In this document: positions 9,027 through 26,432 of the stretch, one piece after another
Numbering within the stretch: the stretch's first letter is position 1
Layout of the letters: each line of letters begins with the position of its first letter
Assembly (NCBI GenBank): GCA_965223235.1
Contig: CBDCVV010000016.1
Coordinates: 92,108 to 156,107, forward strand
DNA length: 64,000 nucleotides
Direction of reading: 5' to 3'
Source of the DNA: Longimicrobiales bacterium
GTDB lineage: Bacteria > Gemmatimonadota > Gemmatimonadetes > Longimicrobiales > Gaopeijiaceae
Translations under genes and position numbers: made by a program
The notes under the pieces: model-generated
The model's database searches: none
Told to the model about the DNA's origin: nothing
The model's input: only the letters and a program-made list of their open reading frames with translations

Positions 9027-9758
9027 GTGAAGCCAGGACTCCGTGTTGCCGTTTTCGCCGGTCTTACTTGGGTCGGTCTGCACCCGAGTGTCGGGTATGC
9101 GCAGACGATTCAGGGCAGAGTCGTGGAGCGGGGGAGCGAGGAGGGGATCCCTTCGACACTCGTCCGACTCGTTTCCGACGCGGGGGAGGATCATTCGATC
9201 ACAGCCGCGGACTCTTCCGGTTTCTATGAACTCCGTGCTCCCCAGCCCGGAACGTTCCGTATCGTCGCCGAGCGCATCGGCTTCGACGACTTCGAGACCC
9301 CTTTACTCTCCGTCGAGAACCCCGACGGCGTGTATCCGGTCGACCTCCTCATGGACCGATCACCGGTCCCGATTCGTGGACTCGAGGTCACGGCAGAGCA
9401 AGTCGACCAACGTCTCAAGTCGATGACCGGGATCGACCCCACATCGATGAGGTGGCGACCTCTCACGCGGCAGGATCTCATCGGGCACGCGGAGCGAGCG
9501 CACGACCTCACCTCTTTAATGCGTTGGAGGAGCTTCGCGGCGATCGAGGTGATCGTGTACGACGACGGCCCCTGTTACCTGATGCGGAGGTACCGACTGT
9601 GCCTGCCCGTCTACCTCAACGGTTTCCGCCTCTCGGCCGACCTGTACGACATCGTCCCACTCGACATGCTACAGGCCGCCGTTGTGATCTCCCCCACCGA
9701 GTCGACGATCTACCCGGAGGGCGGGGTGCTCCTCTTCACCGACGGTTGGATTCGGTGA
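9027..9758 (+). CDS. secreted CarboxypepD_reg-like domain protein with plug-like C-terminus
   Basis: 243 aa with a signal peptide. GRVVERGSEEGIPSTLVRLVS...GFYEL is the carboxypeptidase-regulatory-like fold pattern. The C-terminal VYLNG...PLDMLQAAVVI resembles a TonB-receptor plug segment. Confidence 0.6.
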   Translation: MKPGLRVAVFAGLTWVGLHPSVGYAQTIQGRVVERGSEEGIPSTLVRLVSDAGEDHSITAADSSGFYELRAPQPGTFRIVAERIGFDDFETPLLSVENPDGVYPVDLLMDRSPVPIRGLEVTAEQVDQRLKSMTGIDPTSMRWRPLTRQDLIGHAERAHDLTSLMRWRSFAAIEVIVYDDGPCYLMRRYRLCLPVYLNGFRLSADLYDIVPLDMLQAAVVISPTESTIYPEGGVLLFTDGWIR

Positions 9759-9766
9759 GGCGGGGC

Positions 9767-10540
9767 GTGAACTCTCGGTGCGAACGCCGCGACCGGACCC
9801 TGTTGAGGCTTGCCGGCGTTCCCGTCGCTCTCTGCTGCGCGCTCGTGGCGCTGCCCGGAAGTGTTGTCGCCCAAACCTTCGAAGGGCGTGTGCTCGAGCA
9901 GCGTGGTGAACGGCCGGTGAGCACGGCGCTCGTGCGACTCCTAGACGACGAGGGTGGGGAGGTGGCTCTCTCGATCGCGGACTCGGCCGGGTTCTACAGA
10001 GTCTCCGCCGGTGCGCCCGGCGTGTATCGTCTCGAGGCCGCTCGGCTCGGATTCCATCGCGTGGAGAGCCCGCTGCTCGAGGCTGGGTCTGAGGATGGCG
10101 TGTACCCCATCGACCTCCTCATGACCGCCGCACCCGTCGAGTTACCCGGCTTCACGGTTCTTACGAACAGGGTCCCGGACGAGGTCGCCGATCGGCAGAT
10201 CCAGCTGATGACCGGGTTGAGCCCGCGGTCATTGCGAGTCGAGCCCATCCGCTATGAGCGTCTCCTCGACCACGCAGAACGAGGACATGACCTCGAAGCG
10301 ATGATGCGGTGGACGAACGAAGCTGGAATCGTGACACGGTCCACCACCGATGGACCCTGCTTTCAGGTACGTGGCCGGAGCTGTCTGCCGGTGTACTTGA
10401 ACGGTGCGGCCATCAGTCTCGAGATCGTGAGCGTGATTCCACTCGACATGCTACACACCGCGGTCATCCTCTACCCGAACGAATCTGCAGTGTACAATGC
10501 AGGAGCGATCCTCCTCTATACGGAGGGGTGGGTTCGGTAG
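9767..10540 (+). CDS. paralog of the 9027-9758 protein (CarboxypepD_reg-like, secreted)
   Basis: The GTG at 9767 gives a signal peptide (LLRLAGVPVALCCALVALPGSVVAQ). It is collinear with the upstream gene over its full length (GFY, DGVYP.DLLM, CLPVYLNG, PLDML). The longer ORF from 9452 overlaps the upstream gene. Confidence 0.6.
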   Translation: MNSRCERRDRTLLRLAGVPVALCCALVALPGSVVAQTFEGRVLEQRGERPVSTALVRLLDDEGGEVALSIADSAGFYRVSAGAPGVYRLEAARLGFHRVESPLLEAGSEDGVYPIDLLMTAAPVELPGFTVLTNRVPDEVADRQIQLMTGLSPRSLRVEPIRYERLLDHAERGHDLEAMMRWTNEAGIVTRSTTDGPCFQVRGRSCLPVYLNGAAISLEIVSVIPLDMLHTAVILYPNESAVYNAGAILLYTEGWVR

Positions 10541-10649
10541 AGCCCCCCGGTTGCGGGCAGTATCAAAGCGAAGAGGCCACGCTTGCCCCAGGGGTTGGAA
10601 CGGTCGTACGCTGCGCCCATGACGCTCCTCCCCCCCTAAGGAGTACTTC

Positions 10650-11210
10650 ATGGGCTTTCTCCTCTCCATGTGGCTTCCGATCGTCCTTTCGGGCGTCGCG
10701 GTATTCGTCGCGAGTTCTGTCATTCACATGGTGCTCGGGTACCACAAGCACGACTTCACCCCCGTACCCGATGAAGAGGCCGCCCGGAATGCGATGCGGC
10801 CCCTGGCCATTCCACCCGGTGACTACGTCATCCCTTATGCCGGCAGCATGGAGGCGATGAACTCAGACGAGTACAAGGCGAAGGTATCGGAGGGGCCAGT
10901 GATCTTCTTCACCGCGCTGCGGTCGGAAGACATGAGCAGCATGGGAACGCAGCTGACCCAATGGTTCGGGTACTGCGTCTTCGCGAGCGCGGTAGCCGCG
11001 TATGTGGCTGGCTTCGCTCTGGCTGGCGGTGCCGACTACATGGGAGTCTTTCGCATCACGAGCGTCGTCGCATTCTGCTGCTACGCGATGGCTCACCCTC
11101 AACGGTCGATCTGGTACAAGCAGAAGTGGGGCACTACCGGTCGCAACATGTTCGACGGTCTCGTTTACTCGCTCCTCACGGGCGGAATCTTTGGCTGGCT
11201 GGTCTCCTGA
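10650..11210 (+). CDS. hypothetical integral membrane protein
   Basis: 186 aa with about four hydrophobic helices. AAGGAG RBS 7 nt before the ATG. No family recognised. Confidence 0.5.
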   Translation: MGFLLSMWLPIVLSGVAVFVASSVIHMVLGYHKHDFTPVPDEEAARNAMRPLAIPPGDYVIPYAGSMEAMNSDEYKAKVSEGPVIFFTALRSEDMSSMGTQLTQWFGYCVFASAVAAYVAGFALAGGADYMGVFRITSVVAFCCYAMAHPQRSIWYKQKWGTTGRNMFDGLVYSLLTGGIFGWLVS

Positions 11211-11228
11211 GTCACTCTGGCCCTGGGG

Positions 11229-12044
11229 TTAGGGACCCTCGGCCGATCCTCGCCTCGCGATCTCCAGTAGTTCATCGGAGTCGATCTCTCCGACGAGTGC
11301 TTGCTCTACGGACGGGGACGCCCACGTGACGACTGGCATGACCGGAGCGGTGCCCGGGCGATGCGGGGAGATCGCAGGTAACCGCGACGTCGAACCCTCT
11401 CTTGGTACCACGTAATGGGAGATCTCGAGATCTCCCTTCTTGTACACGATCATCGCTCCCCGCCGCCCCTCGAGTAGACAGATTTCGGCTCGCTCGAGGC
11501 TGAGGCCGGCGAGTTGGATCGGTCGAATTCGGAAGCCGAGCTCACGTTCGAGGAATCGAGTCACTTGGGCCGGATCGTTCGTGACGATGTGATCCTCACC
11601 GACCGCTCGTCGGAGGTAGTCTTCGACGAAGACATCGCCCGGAGCGTACGACGTGGGTGCCGGGGCGCGCACGATCGTGATACCGGCTACCACAACCGCT
11701 ATCGCCACAATCAAAGCCACCCATTCGCGCCGTCTATGTACCGGCAGCGGCGATTGGATCCGATCCACTTCCTGAGGGGCATCGATCCGGAAACGAGAGG
11801 CCGACTCTTGCTGGACACCACCCGGCTGCCGAAGGGCGGCCTCGATCTCGCCTCGAAGTGCCTTCGGCGCTTCCACATCCTTCGCGCGATCGTACGCATC
11901 CAGAAGGCGCCTGTCTTGGCGGAAGTACGACACGCAGCACTCGCAGGTGGCCAAATGCTCCCTGGCTGCCTGCAAGTCGTCTCCCACGATCCGCAGTCTT
12001 TCTGGCGGCCAAAGGAGTTGGCGAGCTCGCTGGCAATCCATCAC
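11229..12044 (-). CDS. putative zf-HC2 anti-sigma factor (single-pass membrane)
   Basis: 271 aa. The N-terminal C..A...L......L......HL..C..C pattern (MMDCQRARQLL...HLATCECC) is followed by one TM helix (WVALIVAIAVVVAGITIV). Confidence 0.6.
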   Translation of the reverse strand: MMDCQRARQLLWPPERLRIVGDDLQAAREHLATCECCVSYFRQDRRLLDAYDRAKDVEAPKALRGEIEAALRQPGGVQQESASRFRIDAPQEVDRIQSPLPVHRRREWVALIVAIAVVVAGITIVRAPAPTSYAPGDVFVEDYLRRAVGEDHIVTNDPAQVTRFLERELGFRIRPIQLAGLSLERAEICLLEGRRGAMIVYKKGDLEISHYVVPREGSTSRLPAISPHRPGTAPVMPVVTWASPSVEQALVGEIDSDELLEIARRGSAEGP

Positions 12045-18597: not shown

Positions 18598-21243
18598 CTA
18601 CTCCGATCGCAGCGCAACAACGGGCGATACCCGGACGGCCCGAGCGGCGGGCAGCACCGAGGCCGCGATCGCCGACGCTCCCAGCGCAAGGGATCCGAAC
18701 AGCACCGTAACCACCTCGGCCGCTCCGACACCATAGACGAACGATTCGATGACCCGGGTCGAACCCCACACACCCACGAGCCCGAACCCGATGCCCCAGA
18801 TGGCCAGCCGCACACCACGCTTCAACACCAAGCTCACGATCCCACCCCCAGCTGCTCCGAGTGCCATCCGAATTCCGAGCTCGCGGACGCGCCGAGAGAC
18901 GAAGTAGGAAACCGTACCGTAGATCCCTGCCGCCGCCAGAAAGAGCGCCGCGATCGCGAATACGGCGACCAGCGTGGTATAGAAGCGTCGTTGGGCCAAG
19001 GCCCGATCGACCCGCTCCGCCATAGTGCGTATCGCACCGGGGGGCTGCGTCGGGTCGACGGCCGCGACCGCCCCACGGACGCCATTGACGATCTCGACCG
19101 GATCCACGTCTGCTCCTATCACAACGAAGCCGGAACCACTCCAACCCTGGTTGAACGGGAGATAGGCTTCGCTGAGCGGCTCCTGCTCCATACCCCACTG
19201 ACGGACGGTGGCGACCACTCCGACCACTGTTAGCCACGGTGGGTTCGAGTCGAAGCCGAACTGCTTGCCGATGGGGTCCTCTCCCGGCCATACGTCCTCA
19301 GCCATCTGCTGGTTGATCAGGACACCCACGGCACCCGTGGCCGTGTCCGCTGCCTCCAGCAAGCGTCCCCTGAGGAGCGGGATACCCATGGCTTGGAAGT
19401 AGTCACCGAATACGCTCGAGACCTCGACGAGCGGCCCCTCACTACTACTGGCTCGAGTAGGGGCGTCCGCGAGCTGGACATTGCCGTTCGACCCTCCGGC
19501 TAGAGGCAGCTTGCTTACGAAGCCGACCTCTCGTACACCCGGAATCGCGTCGACCTCGTCAAGGATCTCCTCGTAGAACCGCTGCATGGCTCCACTGGCC
19601 TCGTACCGAGGGCCCGAGGCGTTGAGGGCCATCGTCAAGACCCCCCGAGTAGAGAAGCCCTGCTCCTGCCCCCTGACGTTCGCGTAGCTGCTGACGAGCA
19701 CCCCAGCGGCGTTGACCAAGATCAAGCCGACCGCGATCTGCACGACGATGAAGGTGTCACGCATGCGCTCCTTCTTCGGAGCCAGCGTCGAATGGCCGCC
19801 CTCCTTCACTCCGGAGGCGACGTCGGTCCGGGAGGCCAGGAGGGCAGGTAGGACGCCGAATACCAGCGACGTCGCTACGGAGGCGGCCACCGCAAAGAGT
19901 AGAACCGTTCCGTCGACACCGATCTGGTCGACACGGGGCACTGTAGGTGGGAGCAGGGATCGGAGTCGGTCAACGGCAAAGAAGGCCACTCCGATCCCAC
20001 CGACTGCCGCGATCGCCGAGAGAACAACGCTTTCGGCGAAGAGGAGACGGACCAGAGTGCGCCGGGAAGCCCCGAGGGCCGTCCGCACCGCCAGCTCACC
20101 CTCTCGCCCGGCTGCACGCGCCAGCAGAAGTCCGGCGACATTCGCACATGCGATGATGAGAACGAGAGCGGCAGCGGCCAGCAGCGTTCTGAACTGGGTG
20201 CCAGCCTCCCCATATCGATACTCGTGCGCGGTCTGCACGAGTGCGCCCCAGCCGCTGTTCGTTTCCGGATACTCGGCTTCGAGCTCAGCGGCGATGCGTT
20301 GCATATCCGCTCGCCCTGACTCAACGGGCACTCCGTCGCGGAGTCGAGCGATGACCGGATAGCTGTGGTTACCACGGCCCCCGTCGAAGAGCTCGTTGGG
20401 AAAGGGAGTGAAGAGCTCGTGGCTTCTGAGGCTACCCCAAGGCGAGGGGACGTCGAACCCCTCCGGCATGACACCCACGACCTCGTGCACCTCGCCGTTG
20501 ATCTCGAGACCTTCGCCGAGGGCGCCGGGCCGACTGTCGAAGAGTCGCCGCCAAAGAGCGTGGGTCAGAACAACAACCCTCGCTCCGTTCTGATCAGACT
20601 CCAACAGCGGCCGCCCATGGAGAGGCGGCACCTCCAGGACGTCGAAGGCGCTCCCGGTCACGGCGGTTCCATATACACGCTCGGCTTTATCGAGTCCGGT
20701 GAGATTGAAGAACCCGGGTCGAAGTGCAGCCATGCCTTCGAAGCTCCGCTGGCGTTCGACGAAGTCGAGGTAGTCCGGTCCGGATGCAGGGCCGCAGCAC
20801 CCGAAGGCCCCGAGCCCCATGACGACGACGATCTCCTCCGACTCTGGAAGGTCCAGAGGGTCGAGGAAGACCGCCTTGTACACACCGAAGAGTGAGGTCG
20901 TGAAGCCGACACCGACGGCGAGTGTCACCGCGATTGTGGCTGAAAATCCAGGGCGCCTAAGAAGCGCCCGTAGTGCTAGTCGAAGATCGTTTCCCCACAT
21001 GGCTATCCCCTCCCCCATCGGTTCTTCGCGCCGGAAGGCGTCGGCCTGTTCCGAGCACCAGGCGCGGAAGGCGGGCGCGAGCGACCGCACCGCCTGAGCG
21101 CGGTACCAAGCCCGCGCGGCGTGCTTACCGCGATGGGCGTGTCGCCGCCGGTACTCTTCCTCCGCGTCACCTCGGACTGCGTCGCGGTCCTCTGGGGCGA
21201 GGAATCTCCCAAGTAGCCACACCCACACCCTTCCCGGCTTCAC
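18598..21243 (-). CDS. duplicated FtsX/MacB-like ABC permease (ADOP-type)
   Basis: 881 aa from a GTG start with a GGGAGG RBS. Two MacB-periplasmic-plus-FtsX modules. The N-terminal leader (LAPEDRDAVRGDAEEEY) is typical of PadR-linked permeases. Confidence 0.85.
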   Translation of the reverse strand: MKPGRVWVWLLGRFLAPEDRDAVRGDAEEEYRRRHAHRGKHAARAWYRAQAVRSLAPAFRAWCSEQADAFRREEPMGEGIAMWGNDLRLALRALLRRPGFSATIAVTLAVGVGFTTSLFGVYKAVFLDPLDLPESEEIVVVMGLGAFGCCGPASGPDYLDFVERQRSFEGMAALRPGFFNLTGLDKAERVYGTAVTGSAFDVLEVPPLHGRPLLESDQNGARVVVLTHALWRRLFDSRPGALGEGLEINGEVHEVVGVMPEGFDVPSPWGSLRSHELFTPFPNELFDGGRGNHSYPVIARLRDGVPVESGRADMQRIAAELEAEYPETNSGWGALVQTAHEYRYGEAGTQFRTLLAAAALVLIIACANVAGLLLARAAGREGELAVRTALGASRRTLVRLLFAESVVLSAIAAVGGIGVAFFAVDRLRSLLPPTVPRVDQIGVDGTVLLFAVAASVATSLVFGVLPALLASRTDVASGVKEGGHSTLAPKKERMRDTFIVVQIAVGLILVNAAGVLVSSYANVRGQEQGFSTRGVLTMALNASGPRYEASGAMQRFYEEILDEVDAIPGVREVGFVSKLPLAGGSNGNVQLADAPTRASSSEGPLVEVSSVFGDYFQAMGIPLLRGRLLEAADTATGAVGVLINQQMAEDVWPGEDPIGKQFGFDSNPPWLTVVGVVATVRQWGMEQEPLSEAYLPFNQGWSGSGFVVIGADVDPVEIVNGVRGAVAAVDPTQPPGAIRTMAERVDRALAQRRFYTTLVAVFAIAALFLAAAGIYGTVSYFVSRRVRELGIRMALGAAGGGIVSLVLKRGVRLAIWGIGFGLVGVWGSTRVIESFVYGVGAAEVVTVLFGSLALGASAIAASVLPAARAVRVSPVVALRSE

Positions 21244-21323
21244 CCGTACCTCCCGTCGGCATCATATGCGACACAGTGTATCATATACATCTAGACACGA
21301 CAATCGTCGATTGGGTTGCGAGC

Positions 21324-22001
21324 GGGTAGGCGGAGGGTCACCGAGTGGGCGCCTCGGCTCGAACCCTCGACCTAGGTGCGGGGGTTCTCTCGACGGGCAG
21401 GTATGCAAAACCCTCTCAGATCTTGCGCGATCTGAAGGGGCTTCAGCGGAATGCGAGGGATGGAGCTGCGGTCGGCTACGCCGATCCTCGCTCGTCTCGG
21501 CGAGGGGCGGGTAGGCGGAGGTCACCGAGTGGGCGCCTCGGCTCGAACCCCTCGACCAGGGTGCGGGGGTTCACCGACCTCCGGGCGGGCGTGCGAAAGC
21601 CCCTCAAGGCCAGAGACCTGAGGGGCTTTGACGGAGCGCGAGGGATGGAGCTGCGGTCGGCTACGCCGATCCTCGCTCGTCTCGGCGAGGGGCGGGTAGG
21701 TGGAGGTCACCGAGTGGGCGCCTCGGCTCGAACCCCTCGACCTAGGTGCGGGGGTTCTTTTGAATACCTGACGGTTATGTGAAAACCCCTCAGGCCAGAG
21801 ACCTGAGGGGCTTTTACGGAGCGCGAGGGATGGAGCTGCGGTCGGCTACGCCGATCCTCGCTCGTCTCGGCGAGGGGTGGGTAGGCGGAGGTCACCGAGT
21901 GGGCGCCTCGGCTCGAACCCCTCGACCAGGGTGCGGGGGTTCACCGACTTCCGGGCGGGCGTGCGAAGGCCCCTCAAGGCCAGAGACTTGAGGGGCTTTT
22001 A
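21324..22001 (-). repeat. tandem array of about 3.7 x 185-bp tRNA-Ser(CGA) echo units
   Basis: gggtaggcggagg recurs at 21324, 21509, 21694 and 21879. The tRNA 3' 15-mer cggagcgcgagggat recurs at 21447 (degenerate), 21632 and 21817, and the real gene starts at 22002. Confidence 0.9.
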
Positions 22002-22084
22002 CGGAGCGCGAGGGATTCGAACCCCCAAGTCCTTTCGGACGCTCGCTTTCGAGGCGAGTGCATTAGCCATTCTGCCAGCGCTCC
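22002..22084 (-). tRNA. tRNA-Ser (anticodon CGA)
   Basis: Manual cloverleaf: GGAGCGC acceptor, anticodon arm CUCGC-CUCGAAA-GCGAG, long variable arm GUCC-GAAA-GGAC, T arm GGGGG-UUCGAAU-CCCUC. No encoded CCA. Confidence 0.9.
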
Positions 22085-22161
22085 TGATACCGTAGCGCGG
22101 GCGCGGTGGGGATCGCGAATCCACGCGGTGCGGATAGTTAGGCCGGTGTGGAGGTTGATTG

Positions 22162-22231
22162 CGCGGCTCGAACCTGCGGTTCGAACCGGAACCACATACT
22201 GACTTTGTCTAATATCGGGGTGCCCGGATTC
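22162..22231 (-). repeat. echo of the tRNA-Pro(CGG) 3' end plus its downstream flank
   Basis: 22162-22231 parallels 22293-22362. The shared sequence is cggctcgaacctgcggttcgaacc...ctgact...taatatcggggtgcccggattc. Identity to the gene ends after ggattc, inside the T-loop. Confidence 0.8.
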
Positions 22232-22345
22232 ATCTCGCTCACGCTCGATGGTCTCGCGGTAACCAGTCTGACTGAAGCCGATGAAATGGGCCGCTCGGCT
22301 CGAACCTGCGGTTCGAACCCGGATCCACTTGCTGACTCTTCCTAA

Positions 22346-22419
22346 TCGGGGTGCCCGGATTCGAACCGGGGACCTCTGCGACCCGAACGCAGCGCTCTAC
22401 CGGACTGAGCCACACCCCG
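22346..22419 (-). tRNA. tRNA-Pro (anticodon CGG)
   Basis: CGGGGUG acceptor, anticodon arm CUGCG-UUCGGGU-CGCAG, T arm CCCGG-UUCGAAU-CCGGG. 74 nt. Confidence 0.9.
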
Positions 22420-22439
22420 GACTACTCGGGTACCTGCAC

Positions 22440-22633
22440 CGACGGGGTGGGATTGAGCTGCGGGCGGCCATGCCGCCCTCGCTCCACTCGCGAGTCACCA
22501 CAGCAGGTACTCGCGTAGACCACCTGTCGCTCGAGTCGAACTCACGCGGCATCCTGCTTCGCAGTCTGCGTGGGTTCGAACGGGAGGGTCGTCGTGACTC
22601 TCTCGTCCACATTCTTCAGTGACTCTTTCAGAA
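22440..22633 (-). repeat. tRNA-Ser(GGA) echo unit
   Basis: gacggggtgggatt at 22441-22454 equals the 3' end of the gene at 22634. It is followed by gagctgcg, a 7-bp hairpin gggcggc-cat-gccgccc and ctcgc-tccactc-gcgag. An inverted T-arm-like gcgtgggttcgaac lies further on. Confidence 0.8.
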
Positions 22634-22716
22634 CGGACGGGGTGGGATTCGAACCCACGCGGACAATGTCCACACGATTTCCAATCGTGCGCCTTAAGCC
22701 ACTCGGCCACCCGTCC
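22634..22716 (-). tRNA. tRNA-Ser (anticodon GGA)
   Basis: GGACGGG acceptor, D-loop GCCGAGUGG, anticodon arm CACGA-UUGGAAA-UCGUG, long variable arm, T arm GUGGG-UUCGAAU-CCCAC. Confidence 0.9.
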
Positions 22717-22754
22717 AAGATGCGGCCGCAGGACTTCTGGCCGACTCTCCCGTT

Positions 22755-22936
22755 GAGGGAGTGGGATGGGCTCGCTGCGCGAGCCGCGTCGCGGAGCACC
22801 AGGGTGGTGCTTCGCGTGTTCGGGCGGGCCGCTCGGCTCAAACCCACTGCCGTCCTCGCTTCGCGAGTCCGGGTGGGTTCGAACTGGATGGTCTTGCGAC
22901 CGAGTTCGTCCACATGGCTTCTCGCGATGCGTTCAA
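22755..22936 (-). repeat. tRNA-Ser(GCU) echo unit
   Basis: gagggagtgggat at 22755-22767 equals the 3' end of the gene at 22937. It is followed by a 7-bp hairpin ggctcgc-tgc-gcgagcc. The unit also contains gccgctcggctcaaaccc, ctcgc-ttc-gcgag, gggtgggttcgaac and tcgtccacat, shared with the Ser(GGA) unit. Confidence 0.8.
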
Positions 22937-23020
22937 CGGAGGGAGTGGGATTCGAACCCACGCGGTGCAAGCACCAACGCCTTAGCAGGGCGCCGCCTTA
23001 AGCCACTCGGCCATCCCTCC
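22937..23020 (-). tRNA. tRNA-Ser (anticodon GCU)
   Basis: GGAGGGA acceptor, anticodon arm GCGCC-CUGCUAA-GGCGU, long variable arm, T arm GUGGG-UUCGAAU-CCCAC. Confidence 0.9.
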
Positions 23021-23517: not shown

Positions 23518-23551
23518 TTTAACGCGAGCTCCGCCTTTGGACTCACGCCCC

Positions 23552-23682
23552 CTCTTGAGGGGTGAGACCCGAGTGCGTCGCAAGGCGGGCAAGGCGACGC
23601 GATCGAGGCGTACTCTTGTACGCCGCAGTGAGCGGAGACCGTAGCCCAACGCCGCGAGGCGCCGGAGATCACCCCTCAAGAG
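23552..23682 (-). other. 131-nt multi-stem structured spacer closed by 14-bp terminal inverted repeats
   Basis: ctcttgaggggtga (23552-23565) is the reverse complement of tcacccctcaagag (23669-23682). Internal 7-bp stems are gcgtcgc/gcgacgc and ggcgtac/gtacgcc. The element abuts the 3' end of tRNA-Leu(GAG). Confidence 0.6.
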
Positions 23683-24451: not shown

Positions 24452-24456
24452 CAGAC

Positions 24457-24491
24457 AAAAAACCCGCCCGGACCCTTTCGGCTCGGACGGG
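24457..24491 (-). terminator. rho-independent terminator inside the tRNA cluster
   Basis: Minus-strand read: CCCGUCCGAGCC-GAAA-GGGUCCGGGCGGG followed by UUUUUU, immediately upstream of tRNA-Phe. Confidence 0.7.
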
Positions 24492-24617
24492 AGTCAGCTC
24501 CGGAGAGATCGGTCTTACCGATCCTCCGCTCCCGCCCGCTGCCGCGGGCTCCACGAGTCGGAAACGATCCAGAGATCGGTACTTTGCACACCCGCTCCTT
24601 CAACGTTGCCGAACGTG
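24492..24617 (-). ncRNA. candidate small RNA between two terminator-like hairpins (unknown family)
   Basis: About 125 nt, bounded by the hairpin at 24618-24641 and the terminator at 24457-24491. Internal hairpins are cgatc-tctg-gatcg and gatcggt-aag-accgatc. No credible ORF and no match to SRP, 6S or tmRNA motifs that I can recall. Confidence 0.3.
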
Positions 24618-24641
24618 GGAAACGCCGCCCTTCGGCGGCGC
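24618..24641 (-). terminator. terminator-like hairpin just after tRNA-fMet
   Basis: Minus-strand read: CGCCGCC-GAAG-GGCGGCG followed by UUUCCC. 7-bp GC stem with a short U run. Confidence 0.45.
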
Positions 24642-24653
24642 TTCACAAACAAA

Positions 24654-26080: not shown

Positions 26081-26358
26081 GCCCAGCCGCATGCTGCGGC
26101 TGGGACCACCTATCGGGACGGCCGGATGTTGCTGCACGAGGCTCGGGCAGACGGTGGTTGAGAACATGGGCGTGCACCGATCCGGCGGTAGAAACAAGAA
26201 AGGCCCCAGCCGCATGCTGCGGCTGGGACCATCAATCGGGACGGCCGGATGTTGCTGCACGAGGCTCGGGCAGACGGTGGTTGAGAACATGGGCGTGCAC
26301 CGATCCGGCCGTGGAAACAAGAAAGGCCCCAGCCGCATGCTGCGGCTGGGACCACCCA
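26081..26358 (-). repeat. tandem array of about 2.3 x 123-bp tRNA-Pro(GGG) echo units
   Basis: tcgggacggccggat occurs at 26113 and 26236, and at 26359 in the real gene. The hairpin cccagccgca-tgc-tgcggctggg occurs at 26082, 26205 and 26328. Identity to the gene stops after ggat, inside the T-loop. Confidence 0.9.
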
Positions 26359-26432
26359 TCGGGACGGCCGGATTCGAACCGGCGACCCCCTGAACCCCAT
26401 TCAGGTGCGCTACCGGGCTGCGCCACGTCCCG
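26359..26432 (-). tRNA. tRNA-Pro (anticodon GGG)
   Basis: CGGGACG acceptor, anticodon arm CCUGA-AUGGGGU-UCAGG, T arm GCCGG-UUCGAAU-CCGGC. 74 nt. Confidence 0.9.

Follow-up and report, generated by a model that had tools for sequence, protein, structure and literature searches.

Gene-less, hairpin-rich units with a conserved core behind tRNA genes of Gemmatimonadota

The DNA stretch analysed here, 64,000 nt from a Longimicrobiales bacterium and referred to as the window, raises the question of why several tRNA genes should be followed by copies of their own 3' ends. We found that these copies, or echoes, are the outer (distal) ends of a family of ~130–230-nt, gene-less, hairpin-rich units in Gemmatimonadota. 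This is a widespread and apparently undescribed repeat family built on a conserved ~82-nt core, which we denoted INS.

Echoes and units in the window

ARAGORN predicted 18 tRNAs in the window, all on the minus strand, as are all features whose coordinates are given below. As originally predicted, exact copies of 13–17 nt of the 3' end were located downstream on the same strand for five of them (a third Ser(CGA) copy has two mismatches). These are tRNA-Ser(CGA) (22002..22084), which is the last gene of a 17-tRNA array and has the T-loop TTCGAAT, tRNA-Pro(CGG) (22346..22419), tRNA-Ser(GGA) (22633..22717), tRNA-Ser(GCU) (22937..23020), and tRNA-Pro(GGG) (26359..26432). Since the expected recurrence of a given 13-mer within 1 kb is about 1e-5, five cases are far beyond chance. 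Units were found at five of the seven tRNAs with the T-loop TTCGAAT and at none of the 11 with other T-loops (Fisher p about 0.0025, our own calculation). The identity between gene and echo had been described as stopping inside the T-loop, and every echo indeed starts at T-loop positions 57–59 (AT, AAT or GAAT); however, the break is the insertion point of INS and not an end of homology. The units had also been thought to lack the 5' strand of the T-stem. This proved incorrect: the Ser echoes and the Pro(CGG) echo each have the T-stem 5' half plus TTCGA ~70–82 nt on their upstream side. The T-loop is split by an insert rather than truncated.

The tandem array after tRNA-Ser(CGA) (185 nt x 3.8 copies by TRF, 21322..22016) is made of units in the order echo, terminator-like hairpin, hairpin II, and INS. 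Echo 1 corresponds to positions 59–76 (15 nt, ATCCCTCGCGCTCCG, 21817..21831), echo 2 has the same length (21632..21646), and echo 3 is decayed (21447..21461). Three 81-nt INS copies are located at 21832..21912 (unit 1, with the P1 variant GAGGCG/CGCC), 21647..21727, and 21462..21542. The distal unit breaks off inside INS, and this shortened INS of the first 37 nt (21322..21358) closes the array, with unrelated sequence beyond. Hairpin II of unit 1 (GAACCCC...GGGGTTCGA, 21913..21942) adjoins INS with a 3' arm that imitates the T-stem 5' strand plus TTCGA; further hairpin II copies lie at 21728-21757, 21543-21572, and 21359-21387.

The Ser(GGA) unit contains hairpin II (CGTTCGAACCCACGC-loop with cGAAg-GCGTGAGTTCGA, 22536..22582), an INS core (CTCGAGCGAC...CCGCAGCTCA, 22455..22535), and a 14-nt echo (AATCCCACCCCGTC, 22441..22454), followed by the native trailer ..ggtacccgagtagtc, which is also present at the empty site of a relative, L001 (loci outside the window are given by L numbers). 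In the Ser(GCU) unit, hairpin II (22838..22885) and a 13-nt echo (22755..22767) flank a divergent INS of 70 nt (22768..22837) that retains the 5' GCCGAGCGGCC and CCGCGA, with its 3' domain cut down to one GCA-loop hairpin. Two units follow tRNA-Pro(CGG). The first comprises hairpin II (GGTTCGAACC-GCA-GGTTCGA, 22300..22319), a divergent INS (variant ...CGCGAGACCATCGAGCGTGAGCGAGATG, 22232..22299) that recurs after tRNA-Pro(GGG) in L164, and a 17-nt echo (GAATCCGGGCACCCCGA, 22215..22231). The second is truncated to hairpin II and the first 4 nt of INS (GCCG; 22164..22187), and beyond it lies native downstream DNA homologous to L001.

After tRNA-Pro(GGG), a tandem array of 123 nt x 2.4 (TRF, 26082..26373) consists of an echo, a trailer hairpin, an inverted copy of the tRNA end, and a 50-nt hairpin core; the conserved INS core is absent from these Pro(GGG) units of the window. 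The 15-nt echoes lie at 26236..26250 (echo 1) and 26113-26127 (echo 2), and the repeat runs to 46 nt with the trailer hairpin included. The inverted copy, denoted A* (CGGCCGGAT, 26303..26311), is the reverse complement of the echo start. ACGGCCGGAT occurs at the equivalent place after the terminator in several Pro(GGG) loci (e.g., L083, L131/L197, and L154), and in partial or variant forms in other Pro(GGG) loci.

Many units contain such an inverted copy of the tRNA 3' end and trailer. Exact A* matches of at least 8 nt were found in 16 of 45 first units (control mean 5.3 nt), the longest being 17–21 bp (L079, L149, L118, L101, L082, and L143). Only about one unit in three has a clear A*, and in the Ser units of the window A* is degenerate. 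In L079, L149, and L101, it fits the genuine tRNA end and trailer better than the echo, and RNAfold predicts its pairing with the genuine tRNA end across the terminator.

Structure and distribution of the INS core

INS is a discrete ~82-nt core (5'-GCCGAGCGG...CGAGACGAGCGAGGA-hairpin-CCGCAGCTCC-3') placed between ...GGTTCGA and AT plus the 3' strands of the T-stem and acceptor stem. Among 94 distinct copies, the left flank is TTCGA in 62, CCTGA in 13, TTTGA in three, and CTCGA in three, the right flank is AT in all 94, and INS has no target duplication of its own. Part of the observed conservation of the core stems from the search pattern, as an ascertainment effect.

The covariation first noticed among three stems of the window extends to the family. 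Two INS helices covary strongly, with changes on both sides of the pair in 105 cells compared with 37.6 ± 4.2 in shuffles (0/500), and with a covariation score of 0.249 compared with 0.068 when shuffled and at most 0.078 with slid partners. The stem of 7 bp with a 3-nt loop that was said to abut the break is real and covaries family-wide as helix P3, the 3' hairpin located 10 nt from the INS end; however, it does not abut the break in the CGA and GGA units, where CCGCAGCTC(C/A) lies between the P3 hairpin and the echo. Another stem (ctcgc-N7/8-gcgag) had been equated with the anticodon stem of tRNA-Ser(CGA). It belongs to the conserved core CCGCGAGACGAGCGAGG, and since the family as a whole does not conserve the 5' arm of this stem, the match is coincidental. 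The 5' part of INS folds as P1 plus variable hairpins, and tandem G.A motifs are present in P1 and the junction. Among 54 distinct P3 hairpins, 36 carry a triloop of the type c(GNA)g; for the loops of hairpin II, the count is 13 of 17. GNRA was seen in only three loops. The units do not score as tRNA. A comparison with the RNA families of Rfam 15, self-cleaving ribozymes included, matched nothing over the units with E as high as 10 in the window and as high as 1 in ten loci; the one exception, BjrC68 over the echo plus terminator in L118, was sub-threshold (29.8 bits vs a cut-off of 39).

One INS motif has matches on at least 120 contigs from metagenomes. Of the 141 matches listed, about 8 are due to chance in coding DNA; the remaining roughly 133 are all in tRNA-derived context, and two of the units are solo units without a nearby tRNA (L109 and L122). 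INS occurs at no fewer than 11 tRNA species, namely Ser(GGA, CGA, GCU, UGA), Pro(CGG, GGG, UGG), Arg(CCG, UCU), Cys, and Val(UAC), and its site is the GA|AT of the T-loop, or that of the anticodon loop in a partial tRNA-Pro(GGG) copy. An intact tRNA lies on the same strand 120–240 nt upstream of INS, or at multiples of that distance in arrays. Downstream units at 11 tRNA species share further parts, namely hairpin II and often A*. No additional INS copy was found elsewhere in the 64-kb window. A scan of 2.9 million viral contigs with the 3' motif yielded no INS, and neither did an nhmmer check of the viral loci picked up by two other pattern scans. Near-identity in the variable middle of INS is confined to copies at the same tRNA species, which suggests that most copies are old and vertically inherited rather than recently mobile; the one exception is a sample in which a Pro(GGG) copy and an Arg copy share 81% identity.

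The original prediction suggested looking for presence/absence polymorphism, and this was found. Related genomes of Gemmatimonadota share the 17-tRNA array in synteny, with units present at some sites and absent from others. Two spacers of L001 are 19 and 34 nt long where the window, L002, L004, L005, and L012 have 100–395 nt. The empty sites of L001 are Ser(GGA) and Ser(GCU), as compared with the window, L005, and L012, and L012 lacks the unit at Pro(CGG). A native trailer (..tacccgagtagtc) stands behind the echo in the window and directly behind the tRNA in L001. Similarly, the terminator that adjoins the genuine tRNA in L131/L197 stands behind the echo in L149, where another terminator follows the tRNA. 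Non-identical units accrete next to the tRNA, and diverged genomes retain units at the same tRNAs. Echoes or cores have decayed in the GCU and Pro units of the window, in the GGA unit of L005, and in L101. Many units sit downstream of terminator hairpins. In L164, 2.3 kb with two ORFs separates the proximal units from a distal INS plus echo. Furthermore, mirror-image copies of the form [leader+1-31]INS[32-44] or [1-58]INS[59-66] occur upstream, followed by the intact gene, and INS is the only foreign DNA within their otherwise native tRNA sequence.

The units are devoid of coding capacity, and the genes beside them include no non-syntenic protein family that recurs. No integrase, transposase or reverse transcriptase is present among the 38 large ORFs of the window, in line with the earlier remark that it carries no integrase, and no Y1 transposase/TnpA was seen there. 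Neither a mobilising enzyme nor a circular form or an excision product was found.

Possible origins of the units

Among the readings initially offered, a tRNA-linked, non-autonomous repeat family is best supported, given its occurrence on at least 120 contigs and at 11 or more tRNA species and its variable presence between relatives. Within it, we give a probability of about one half to the units being a non-autonomous integrative mini-element that rebuilds the tRNA gene and keeps the old 3' end as the echo, followed by accretion and tandem amplification. In tRNA orientation, a downstream unit begins with its own copy of tRNA positions 59–76 and a trailer or terminator-like hairpin, often continues with A* as an inverted copy of the 59–76 segment, and then carries one to three small hairpins, the last being hairpin II with the 3' arm GGTTCGA, and finally INS. 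The mini-element would insert in the T-loop of the cognate tRNA gene at the A58/A59 junction (GA|AT). Its own 59–76 copy would restore the gene, and the original 3' end with the native trailer would be displaced downstream and retained beside INS as the echo. The mirror-image form would bring a replacement 5' part and target either the T-loop or position 31|32 of the anticodon loop, which is likewise GA|AT, leaving a partial copy upstream of the gene. Tandem arrays could then arise by accretion beside the tRNA and unequal crossing-over, and old units would decay via deletion and mutation.

We infer that the mini-element is mobilised in trans by a recombinase or transposase encoded elsewhere and is recognised as folded single-stranded DNA. 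A hairpin may supply the tRNA 3' end in double-stranded form, as happens in the attP of CTX-phage/IMEX; alternatively, the unit may have HUH-type hairpin ends, with INS as the protein-recognition module. The identity blocks of 13–17 nt are compatible with a site-specific enzyme and are not diagnostic of which. A shift to a new tRNA species would require new 59–76 and A* segments, which counts against the mini-element, as do the apparent age of most copies, the small share of units with a clear A*, and the negative results for a mobilising enzyme, a circular form, and an excision product.

It is also conceivable, though unlikely, that INS alone is mobile, as an 82-nt non-autonomous ssDNA transposon (PATE/REPIN-like, HUH Y1) inserting 3' of YYBGA in hairpin loops, with the surrounding partial tRNA copies being pre-existing or secondary duplications where insertion is harmless. 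This would fit the hairpins near both INS ends (the 3' one 10 nt from the end), the c(GNA)g DNA mini-hairpin loops, the site 3' of TTCGA or CCTGA with no target duplication, and INS as the sole foreign DNA in the upstream tRNA copies. However, TTCGA is common in any genome, and yet all of the roughly 133 genuine matches are tRNA-derived, with no extra copy and no Y1 transposase in the window. In addition, the hairpin II and frequent A* common to units at 11 tRNA species are left unexplained.

A role for the host is similarly improbable. Here the units would be cis-acting structured RNAs of tRNA operons, used as a switch or processing signal, or tRNA-like decoys; for example, A* might pair with either the genuine tRNA 3' end or the echo, and INS might control the maturation of particular tRNAs. 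The units are always on the tRNA strand, their helices covary, tandem G.A motifs occur in P1 and the junction, they persist at the same tRNAs across diverged genomes, and A* matches the genuine tRNA end and trailer better in L079, L149, and L101. Against this, the units are dispensable, being absent from two sites in L001 and from one in L012, and echoes and cores have decayed in several of them. Both strands fold equally well, and no Rfam family matches. An expressed tRNA-like or decoy RNA, which the original prediction had listed, is mildly argued against by G.U pairs that are no commoner than A.C (6 vs about 10), by loops that are GNA triloops and not GNRA or UNCG, and by the position of many units behind terminator hairpins.

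The first of the initial readings, scars of integrase-mediated recombination, holds in part: the tRNA is rebuilt proximally, the native 3' end and trailer are displaced distally, and non-identical units accrete. We nevertheless regard it as quite improbable that the units are decayed CIME-like remnants of tyrosine-integrase islands or prophages whose shared motifs are leftovers of related attP arms. The direct repeats from T-loop to 3' end, together with the empty sites, form the classical pattern of integration into tRNA genes, and L164 still has its 2.3 kb and two ORFs between the tRNA and the distal INS plus echo. However, random decay of islands would not leave a constant size and architecture, and independent deletions would not converge on one ~82-nt core and on units of similar length across 11 tRNA species and >100 contigs. 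The core covaries and is also present in the anticodon loop of upstream partial copies. INS was not found in the 2.9 million viral contigs (motif scan, with nhmmer on the loci of two scans), and no integrase is present in the window or beside the units.

Quite unlikely, too, is that INS, rather than being a passive site for protein binding, acts as a structured ~82-nt ribozyme-like or guide-scaffold module directing its own insertion at GA|AU(T) in tRNA loops. This might proceed by reverse splicing into the tRNA and then retro-integration, or a recombinase guided by RNA or ssDNA might use A* or the echo as its re-programmable guide. A related idea is an 'anti-tRNA' switch, in which A* would alternately sequester the real tRNA 3' end or the echo. 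Finally, although short-read assemblies may mis-collapse or mis-expand tandem repeats and the exact copy numbers of 3.8 and 2.4 are uncertain, assembly artefacts can be dismissed, because the units within an array differ (84–95% identity) and their architecture is found again in numerous MAGs and metagenome contigs of independent origin.

If the units are a mobile mini-element, no smaller class of integrative DNA specific for tRNA genes would be known. Its core is well defined and conserved, its target in two different tRNA loops would be precise to the nucleotide, and it would bring its own substitute for the tRNA part that it displaces. This would point to a Gemmatimonadota recombinase or transposase with a short, structured, and possibly re-targetable recognition module. 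A ribozyme-like or guide module would instead represent a new class of tRNA-loop-specific mobile element, and a catalytic or regulatory RNA core a new RNA class linked to tRNA biogenesis. In the tRNA arrays of Gemmatimonadota, the units account for variable spacers and for 'partial tRNA' calls, and they are a likely cause of assembly breaks there; CGAGNNGAGCGAGG-hairpin-CGCAGCTC(C/A)AT serves as a search handle for them.

Comparison with known systems

Two candidates were rejected. A classical MITE (DDE transposase) does not fit, as the inverted segments (A*/echo) copy the local tRNA and are not element-specific, and the direct repeat ranges from 13 to 46 nt with no target-site duplication of fixed length. 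An intron-bearing tRNA gene was discarded because every interrupted copy is partial ([47-58]INS[59-76], [32-58]INS[59-76], [1-31]INS[32-44] or [1-58]INS[59-66]). In Thermoproteales archaea, mobile tRNA introns are short, related to one another, and spread over many positions, some of them non-canonical and beyond the anticodon loop. INS resembles them as a short, related insert at defined loop positions of different tRNAs. However, the copies interrupted by INS are fragments beside an intact, uninterrupted gene, and their hosts are bacteria, which as a rule lack the archaeal splicing endonuclease.

IS200/IS605 elements insert as single-stranded DNA 3' of a 4–5-nt target and have non-autonomous PATE derivatives (PMC3597680, PMC10055086), and TnpA-REP is the presumed mobiliser of REP elements (PMC8266576). 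Like PATEs and REP/REPINs, the units are small, gene-less, and hairpin-rich, and INS lies 3' of TTCGA/CCTGA/TTTGA/CTCGA in 81 of 94 copies, with AT next, no target duplication, and a hairpin about 10 nt from its 3' end. P1 with its variable hairpins in the 5' part of INS and P3 near the 3' end may correspond to the imperfect subterminal hairpins LE and RE. The DNA-type stable triloops suggest that a single-stranded DNA intermediate may be involved. Unlike these elements, INS is restricted to tRNA-loop contexts rather than dispersed, with none elsewhere in the 64-kb window, and the units carry direct and inverted copies of the target tRNA end, with no TnpA found.

CIMEs are elements that keep attL and attR and have lost the genes for integration and transfer (PMC5704250). 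As at tRNA islands and CIMEs, direct repeats of the tRNA 3' part flank the units (13–17, up to 46 nt), also in relatives, the gene is rebuilt proximally with the native end and trailer displaced, newer units are nearest the tRNA, and relatives have empty sites, with native downstream DNA behind the distal repeat. However, the units are 130–230 nt and not kilobases long, and no tyrosine or serine integrase was found beside them. Their junction holds a conserved 82-nt core that covaries, mirror-image forms occupy the anticodon loop on the upstream side of the gene, and in many units an inverted copy of the att segment is present.

In CTX-phage-type IMEX, single-stranded DNA folds two inverted site copies into a hairpin attP, integration by the host XerCD is irreversible, and tandem arrays form. 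The units differ in that their target is a tRNA loop and not dif, in their size of about 200 nt without genes or a known phage partner, and in having a clear A* in about a third of cases only. As in these elements, the units carry no recombinase, and they build up in tandem at the target with the newest nearest; where A* is clear, it may fold with the direct target copy as a duplex target mimic. The GNA triloops and the lack of a G.U excess are indirect hints that integration may pass through single-stranded DNA.

tRNA genes, echoes and filled sites

ARAGORN detected 18 tRNA genes in the window, all on the minus strand. Seventeen form an array running from 24728 down to 22002 (in the order Met, Phe, Trp, Glu, Asp, Ala, Leu, Leu, Arg, Val, Ala, Thr, Gln, Ser-GCU, Ser-GGA, Pro-CGG, Ser-CGA), and tRNA-Pro(GGG) lies outside it at 26359-26432. 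CCA is not encoded in Ser-GCU, Ser-GGA, Pro-CGG and Ser-CGA, the four tRNA genes whose 3' flanks were inspected. The window has a G+C content of ~63%, and its housekeeping genes include those for LeuRS, transketolase, RecQ, Ser/Thr kinases, ABC/MacB transporters and peptidases. As the original prediction stated, no integrase was found among the 38 large ORFs scanned in the window, nor was a transposase or a reverse transcriptase. The MgtC/DUF4010 protein flanking the array shares 67-80% identity with proteins of Gemmatimonadota, Gemmatimonadales, Gemmatimonadaceae and Longimicrobiales MAGs, which assigns the window to Gemmatimonadota; an exact-protein look-up of this MgtC-like gene returned no record.

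Each of the five tRNAs previously named, Ser(CGA), Ser(GGA), Ser(GCU), Pro(CGG) and Pro(GGG), is indeed followed on the tRNA strand by exact copies (echoes) of its last 13-17 nt, and TRF detects tandem arrays behind Ser(CGA) (185 nt x 3.8) and Pro(GGG) (123 nt x 2.4). The break had been placed correctly inside the T-loop; however, it is not an end of homology but an insertion point between A58 and A59. The 5' strand of the T-stem, thought to be missing, is present in the Ser and Pro(CGG) units as part of a partial T-arm split at A58/A59. On the tRNA strand, these units consist of a trailer (in some with a terminator-like hairpin), hairpin II, an insert and the echo. Hairpin II is an inverted repeat whose 3' arm (GGTTCGA) resembles the T-stem 5' strand plus TTCGA; the insert is 69-82 nt long and starts with GCCGAG(C/G)GG, or with CTCGAGCG in the Ser(GGA) unit; and the echo comprises AT, the T-stem 3' strand and the acceptor 3' strand. 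The hairpins after Ser(CGA) were not called by a simple terminator scan and have weak T-tracts, and are therefore named terminator-like only. Units follow five of the seven window tRNAs with the T-loop TTCGAAT and none of the 11 whose T-loop differs.

The 17-tRNA array is syntenic, beside the MgtC/DUF4010 gene, in at least five other Gemmatimonadota genomes (related loci L001, L002, L004, L005 and L012), and across these arrays the units vary in presence site by site. Spacer length behind Ser(GCU), Ser(GGA) and Pro(CGG) ranges from 19-34 nt (empty) to 100-547 nt (filled), and the Ser(CGA) units are limited to the lineage of the window among the related loci compared. At the Ser(GGA) site, the tRNA of L001 is followed by tgttgttacccgagtagtc, and that of the window by a unit, its echo and ggtgcaggtacccgagtagtc; the unit is thus cleanly inserted, and the native trailer continues after its echo.

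Three other intergenic stretches were noted in the window. The Met-Phe spacer (24452-24652, minus strand), whose length of ~200 nt is kept in all relatives, has a hairpin directly after tRNA-Met, a strong terminator (..gggtccgggcgggtttttt) and a segment (GAGCGGAGGATCGGTAAGACCGATC..GGAGCTGA) similar to the 3' domain of INS, the conserved ~82-nt core of the units. This spacer contains no tRNA-Met echo and may be either the relic of an old INS or an element of its own. The 164-nt Leu(GAG)-Arg(ACG) spacer (23518-23681, minus strand) is bounded by a 13-bp inverted repeat (tcttgaggggtga ... tcacccctcaaga) with arms ~105 nt apart, unrelated to INS. An AT-rich, partly palindromic stretch (21255-21300; tctagatgtatatgatacactgtgtcgcatatgat) separates the Ser(CGA) array from a MacB-like ABC transporter gene (18598-21243, minus strand); the stretch holds the only sigma-70-like match of the region and looks operator- or promoter-like.

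The INS family and its fold

The motif CGAGNNGAGCGAGG-N(8-22)-CGCAGCTC(C/A)AT retrieved six matches in three related loci (L002, L004 and L012) and occurred in at least 120 metagenome contigs. Of the 141 motif matches listed, about 8 were chance matches in coding DNA. In all other listed matches, the motif makes up the 3' portion of a distinct module, which is about 79-92 nt long (mostly 81-83 nt) and has the layout 5'-GCCGAGCGGCC-[variable hairpins, about 35 nt]-(T)CCGCGAGACGAGCGAGGA-[hairpin P3]-CCGCAGCTC(C/A)-3'. The left flank in 94 distinct copies was TTCGA (62), CCTGA (13), TTTGA (3) or CTCGA (3), among others, and the right flank was AT without exception.

INS occurred in three contexts. 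Downstream units, composed of hairpin II, INS and an echo of tRNA positions 59-76, lie behind an intact tRNA located 120-240 nt upstream, or multiples thereof in arrays; the tRNAs concerned are Ser(GGA, CGA, GCU, UGA), Pro(CGG, GGG, UGG), Arg(CCG, UCU), Cys and Val(UAC). Upstream of tRNA-Pro(GGG), a leader and tRNA positions 1-31 (...CCTGA) are followed by INS and ATGGGGTTCAGGG (positions 32-44); these copies, some of them tandem, diverge after position 44 and are followed by the intact gene. Upstream of tRNA-Pro(UGG), positions 1-58, INS and positions 59-66 precede the intact gene. Fragments with INS between positions 32-58 and 59-76 were also found, two of them with no tRNA nearby. GA|AT is the sequence at both insertion points, and fragments end at 31|32 or 58|59, except for the distal ends of short flanking copies (about 44, 47 and 66). 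All INS-interrupted tRNA copies are fragments, and the functional gene is uninterrupted in every case. That INS alone is a small single-stranded DNA transposon seems unlikely to us.

In locus L109, four direct repeats of TTGTGTCG(A/T)T (about 1090-1160), iteron- or arm-site-like, lie just upstream of an orphan [32-58]INS[59-76] unit, which has no tRNA gene within 1.2 kb upstream or 3.2 kb downstream. In L164 and the identical L165 (oriented 9270-11990), tRNA-Pro(GGG) is followed by one variant-INS unit, one truncated unit, a 2.3-kb stretch carrying two ORFs on the opposite strand (467 and 344 aa), and then INS and an echo, so that a larger segment appears to be enclosed between the tRNA and the distal unit. 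The ORF translations of this 2.3-kb insert and of the surroundings of L109, read by eye, revealed nothing recognisably mobility-related.

Covariation was tested in an anchor-defined alignment of 62 distinct INS copies. In helix P1, nucleotides 1-3 and 6-9 pair with CCGC..GAC around a tandem G.A/A.G, and helix P3 corresponds to the 7-bp stem with a 3-nt loop for which covariation had been claimed; both helices covary. Two-sided changes occurred in 105 cells of P1/P3, compared with 37.6 ± 4.2 in shuffles (reached in 0 of 500), and the covariation score was 0.249, compared with 0.068 for shuffles and at most 0.078 for slid partners. Covarying pairs include GAGCGG/CCGC, GAGGCG/CGCC, GAGGGG/CCCC and GAGCGA/TCGC, and INS nucleotide 1 forms G-C, C-G, U-G or A-U pairs. 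The INS fold is thus under constraint. The supposed identity of a stem-loop with the anticodon stem of Ser(CGA) did not hold, as the match lies within the conserved core and its 5' arm differs among family members.

Neither wobble pairs nor folding energy assigned the fold to a strand. G.T pairs (6) were no commoner than A.C pairs (about 10, plus one conserved C.A at 41/62), which is uninformative for RNA as well, and both strands folded about equally well (z of about -1 to -5), except the + strand of the Pro(CGG) unit with RNA parameters (z = +0.27). The c(GNA)g triloop, a classic hyper-stable DNA mini-hairpin, closes 36 of 54 distinct P3 hairpins and 13 of 17 hairpins II, and GNRA loops were found only three times. 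The data lean towards single-stranded DNA rather than RNA as the folded molecule. That the units are host cis-acting RNA is about as improbable as the transposon reading of INS.

Inverted copies and unit history

Many downstream units, especially those of Pro, Cys and Arg, contain an inverted copy of the tRNA end (A*), located after the terminator and before hairpin II; it is the complement, in reverse, of tRNA positions 76 to 59/56 together with 3-5 nt of the trailer. Perfect matches of 17-21 bp were found in L079, L149, L118, L101, L082 and L143. Among 45 first units, A* paired better with its own tRNA end than with foreign ends (Wilcoxon p = 0.003), and 16 had an exact match of at least 8 nt (control mean 5.3 nt). 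In L079, L149 and L101, A* fits the genuine tRNA end and trailer better than it fits the echo. The only clear A* of the window is that after Pro(GGG) (CGGCCGGAT, 26303-26311); ACGGCCGGAT likewise follows the terminator in several listed tRNA-Pro(GGG) loci (e.g., L083, L131/L197 and L154), and some further loci have partial or variant forms of it.

The terminator directly after the genuine tRNA in L131/L197 stands behind the echo in L149, where a different terminator, A*, hairpins and INS lie between tRNA and echo. The unit therefore carried in a replacement 3' end and displaced the old one downstream. Stacked units are non-identical, with the newest adjoining the gene. Near-identical tandem copies (three at CGA in the window, and in L004, L146, L176 and L180) indicate amplification as well as stacking. 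The ends of arrays are often truncated, either within INS or where it begins (window 21322-21358 and 22164-22174; L161 and L164). Decay is seen in the divergent cores of the GCU and Pro(CGG) units of the window, the lost 3' core of the L005 GGA unit, mini-units of 25-54 nt in L001 and L005, and mutations in several echoes. In its variable middle, INS is closely similar only among copies that share a tRNA species, the sole exception being one Pro(GGG)/Arg pair of copies from a single sample (81% identity). Most units therefore look old and vertically inherited, and spread to new tRNAs appears to be rare.

Candidate identities and proposed mobilisation

Degenerate tRNA pseudogenes were rejected, since ARAGORN and the Rfam tRNA model gave the units no score and their upstream parts are not tRNA-like. 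Known RNA families and ribozymes were likewise rejected, with no match in Rfam. BjrC68, a Bradyrhizobiaceae sRNA in Rfam, matched over echo and terminator (L118 191-257, minus strand; window 26314-26390), but the match was sub-threshold and carried mainly by the terminator, and the literature on BjrC68 was of no help. The start of its consensus (AGAACUACGGUUCG) is similar to hairpin II (AGAACCGTAGGTTCGA); a related tRNA-linked hairpin element may exist in Bradyrhizobium. A reverse-transcriptase stop at m1A58 (cf. the 18-nt retroviral primer-binding site), an appealing explanation of the 58/59 boundary, was rejected as its general cause because 31|32 has no such block, GA|AT is common to both sites, and echoes are followed by trailers rather than CCA.

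A phage or provirus origin was also rejected: three pattern scans of viral contigs, among them the one with the INS motif, which had no match, gave none or only chance coding-DNA matches (nhmmer check), and tRNAs were the sole matches in phage BLAST. The 16-mer GGTTCGAGCCGAGCGG occurred in 68 viral contigs (L198-L265), none with INS; about a third of these share one conserved, protein-coding-like flank, and the rest are unrelated single matches. Candidates for an autonomous copy, namely matches without the typical 5' end, proved to be ordinary units that vary at this end, or chance gene matches. Proteins that recur beside the units come only from housekeeping genes in synteny and from spurious ORFs over tRNAs.

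In their anatomy, the units fit integrative elements without genes that insert at GA|AT in a tRNA loop and bring along the part of the tRNA they displace. We favour mobilisation in trans, by which the unit would move via a folded single-stranded DNA form; no mobilising enzyme, circle or excision product was seen in the window or the listed loci. The tRNA segment of the unit and A* might together form a CTX/IMEX-like hairpin attP. Alternatively, the hairpins might act as HUH-type ends, as in IS200/IS605 PATEs and in REPs (PMC3597680, PMC10055086, PMC8266576). A more unusual nature of the core, for instance as a catalytic or guide-scaffold nucleic acid or as an anti-tRNA switch, has a modest probability. 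That the units are ordinary island scars is a little less probable than either the transposon or the RNA reading, and an assembly artefact is hardly credible.

No description of the INS element was found in Rfam or the searchable literature, where neither the motif strings nor the subject of tRNA-loop mobile elements yielded anything relevant. The nearest known kind is that of site-specific, non-autonomous elements at tRNA genes. tRNA-integrating islands and CIMEs (defined in PMC5704250) share their topology with the present units, whereas the latter are only 130-230 nt long and have a conserved structured core at the junction.
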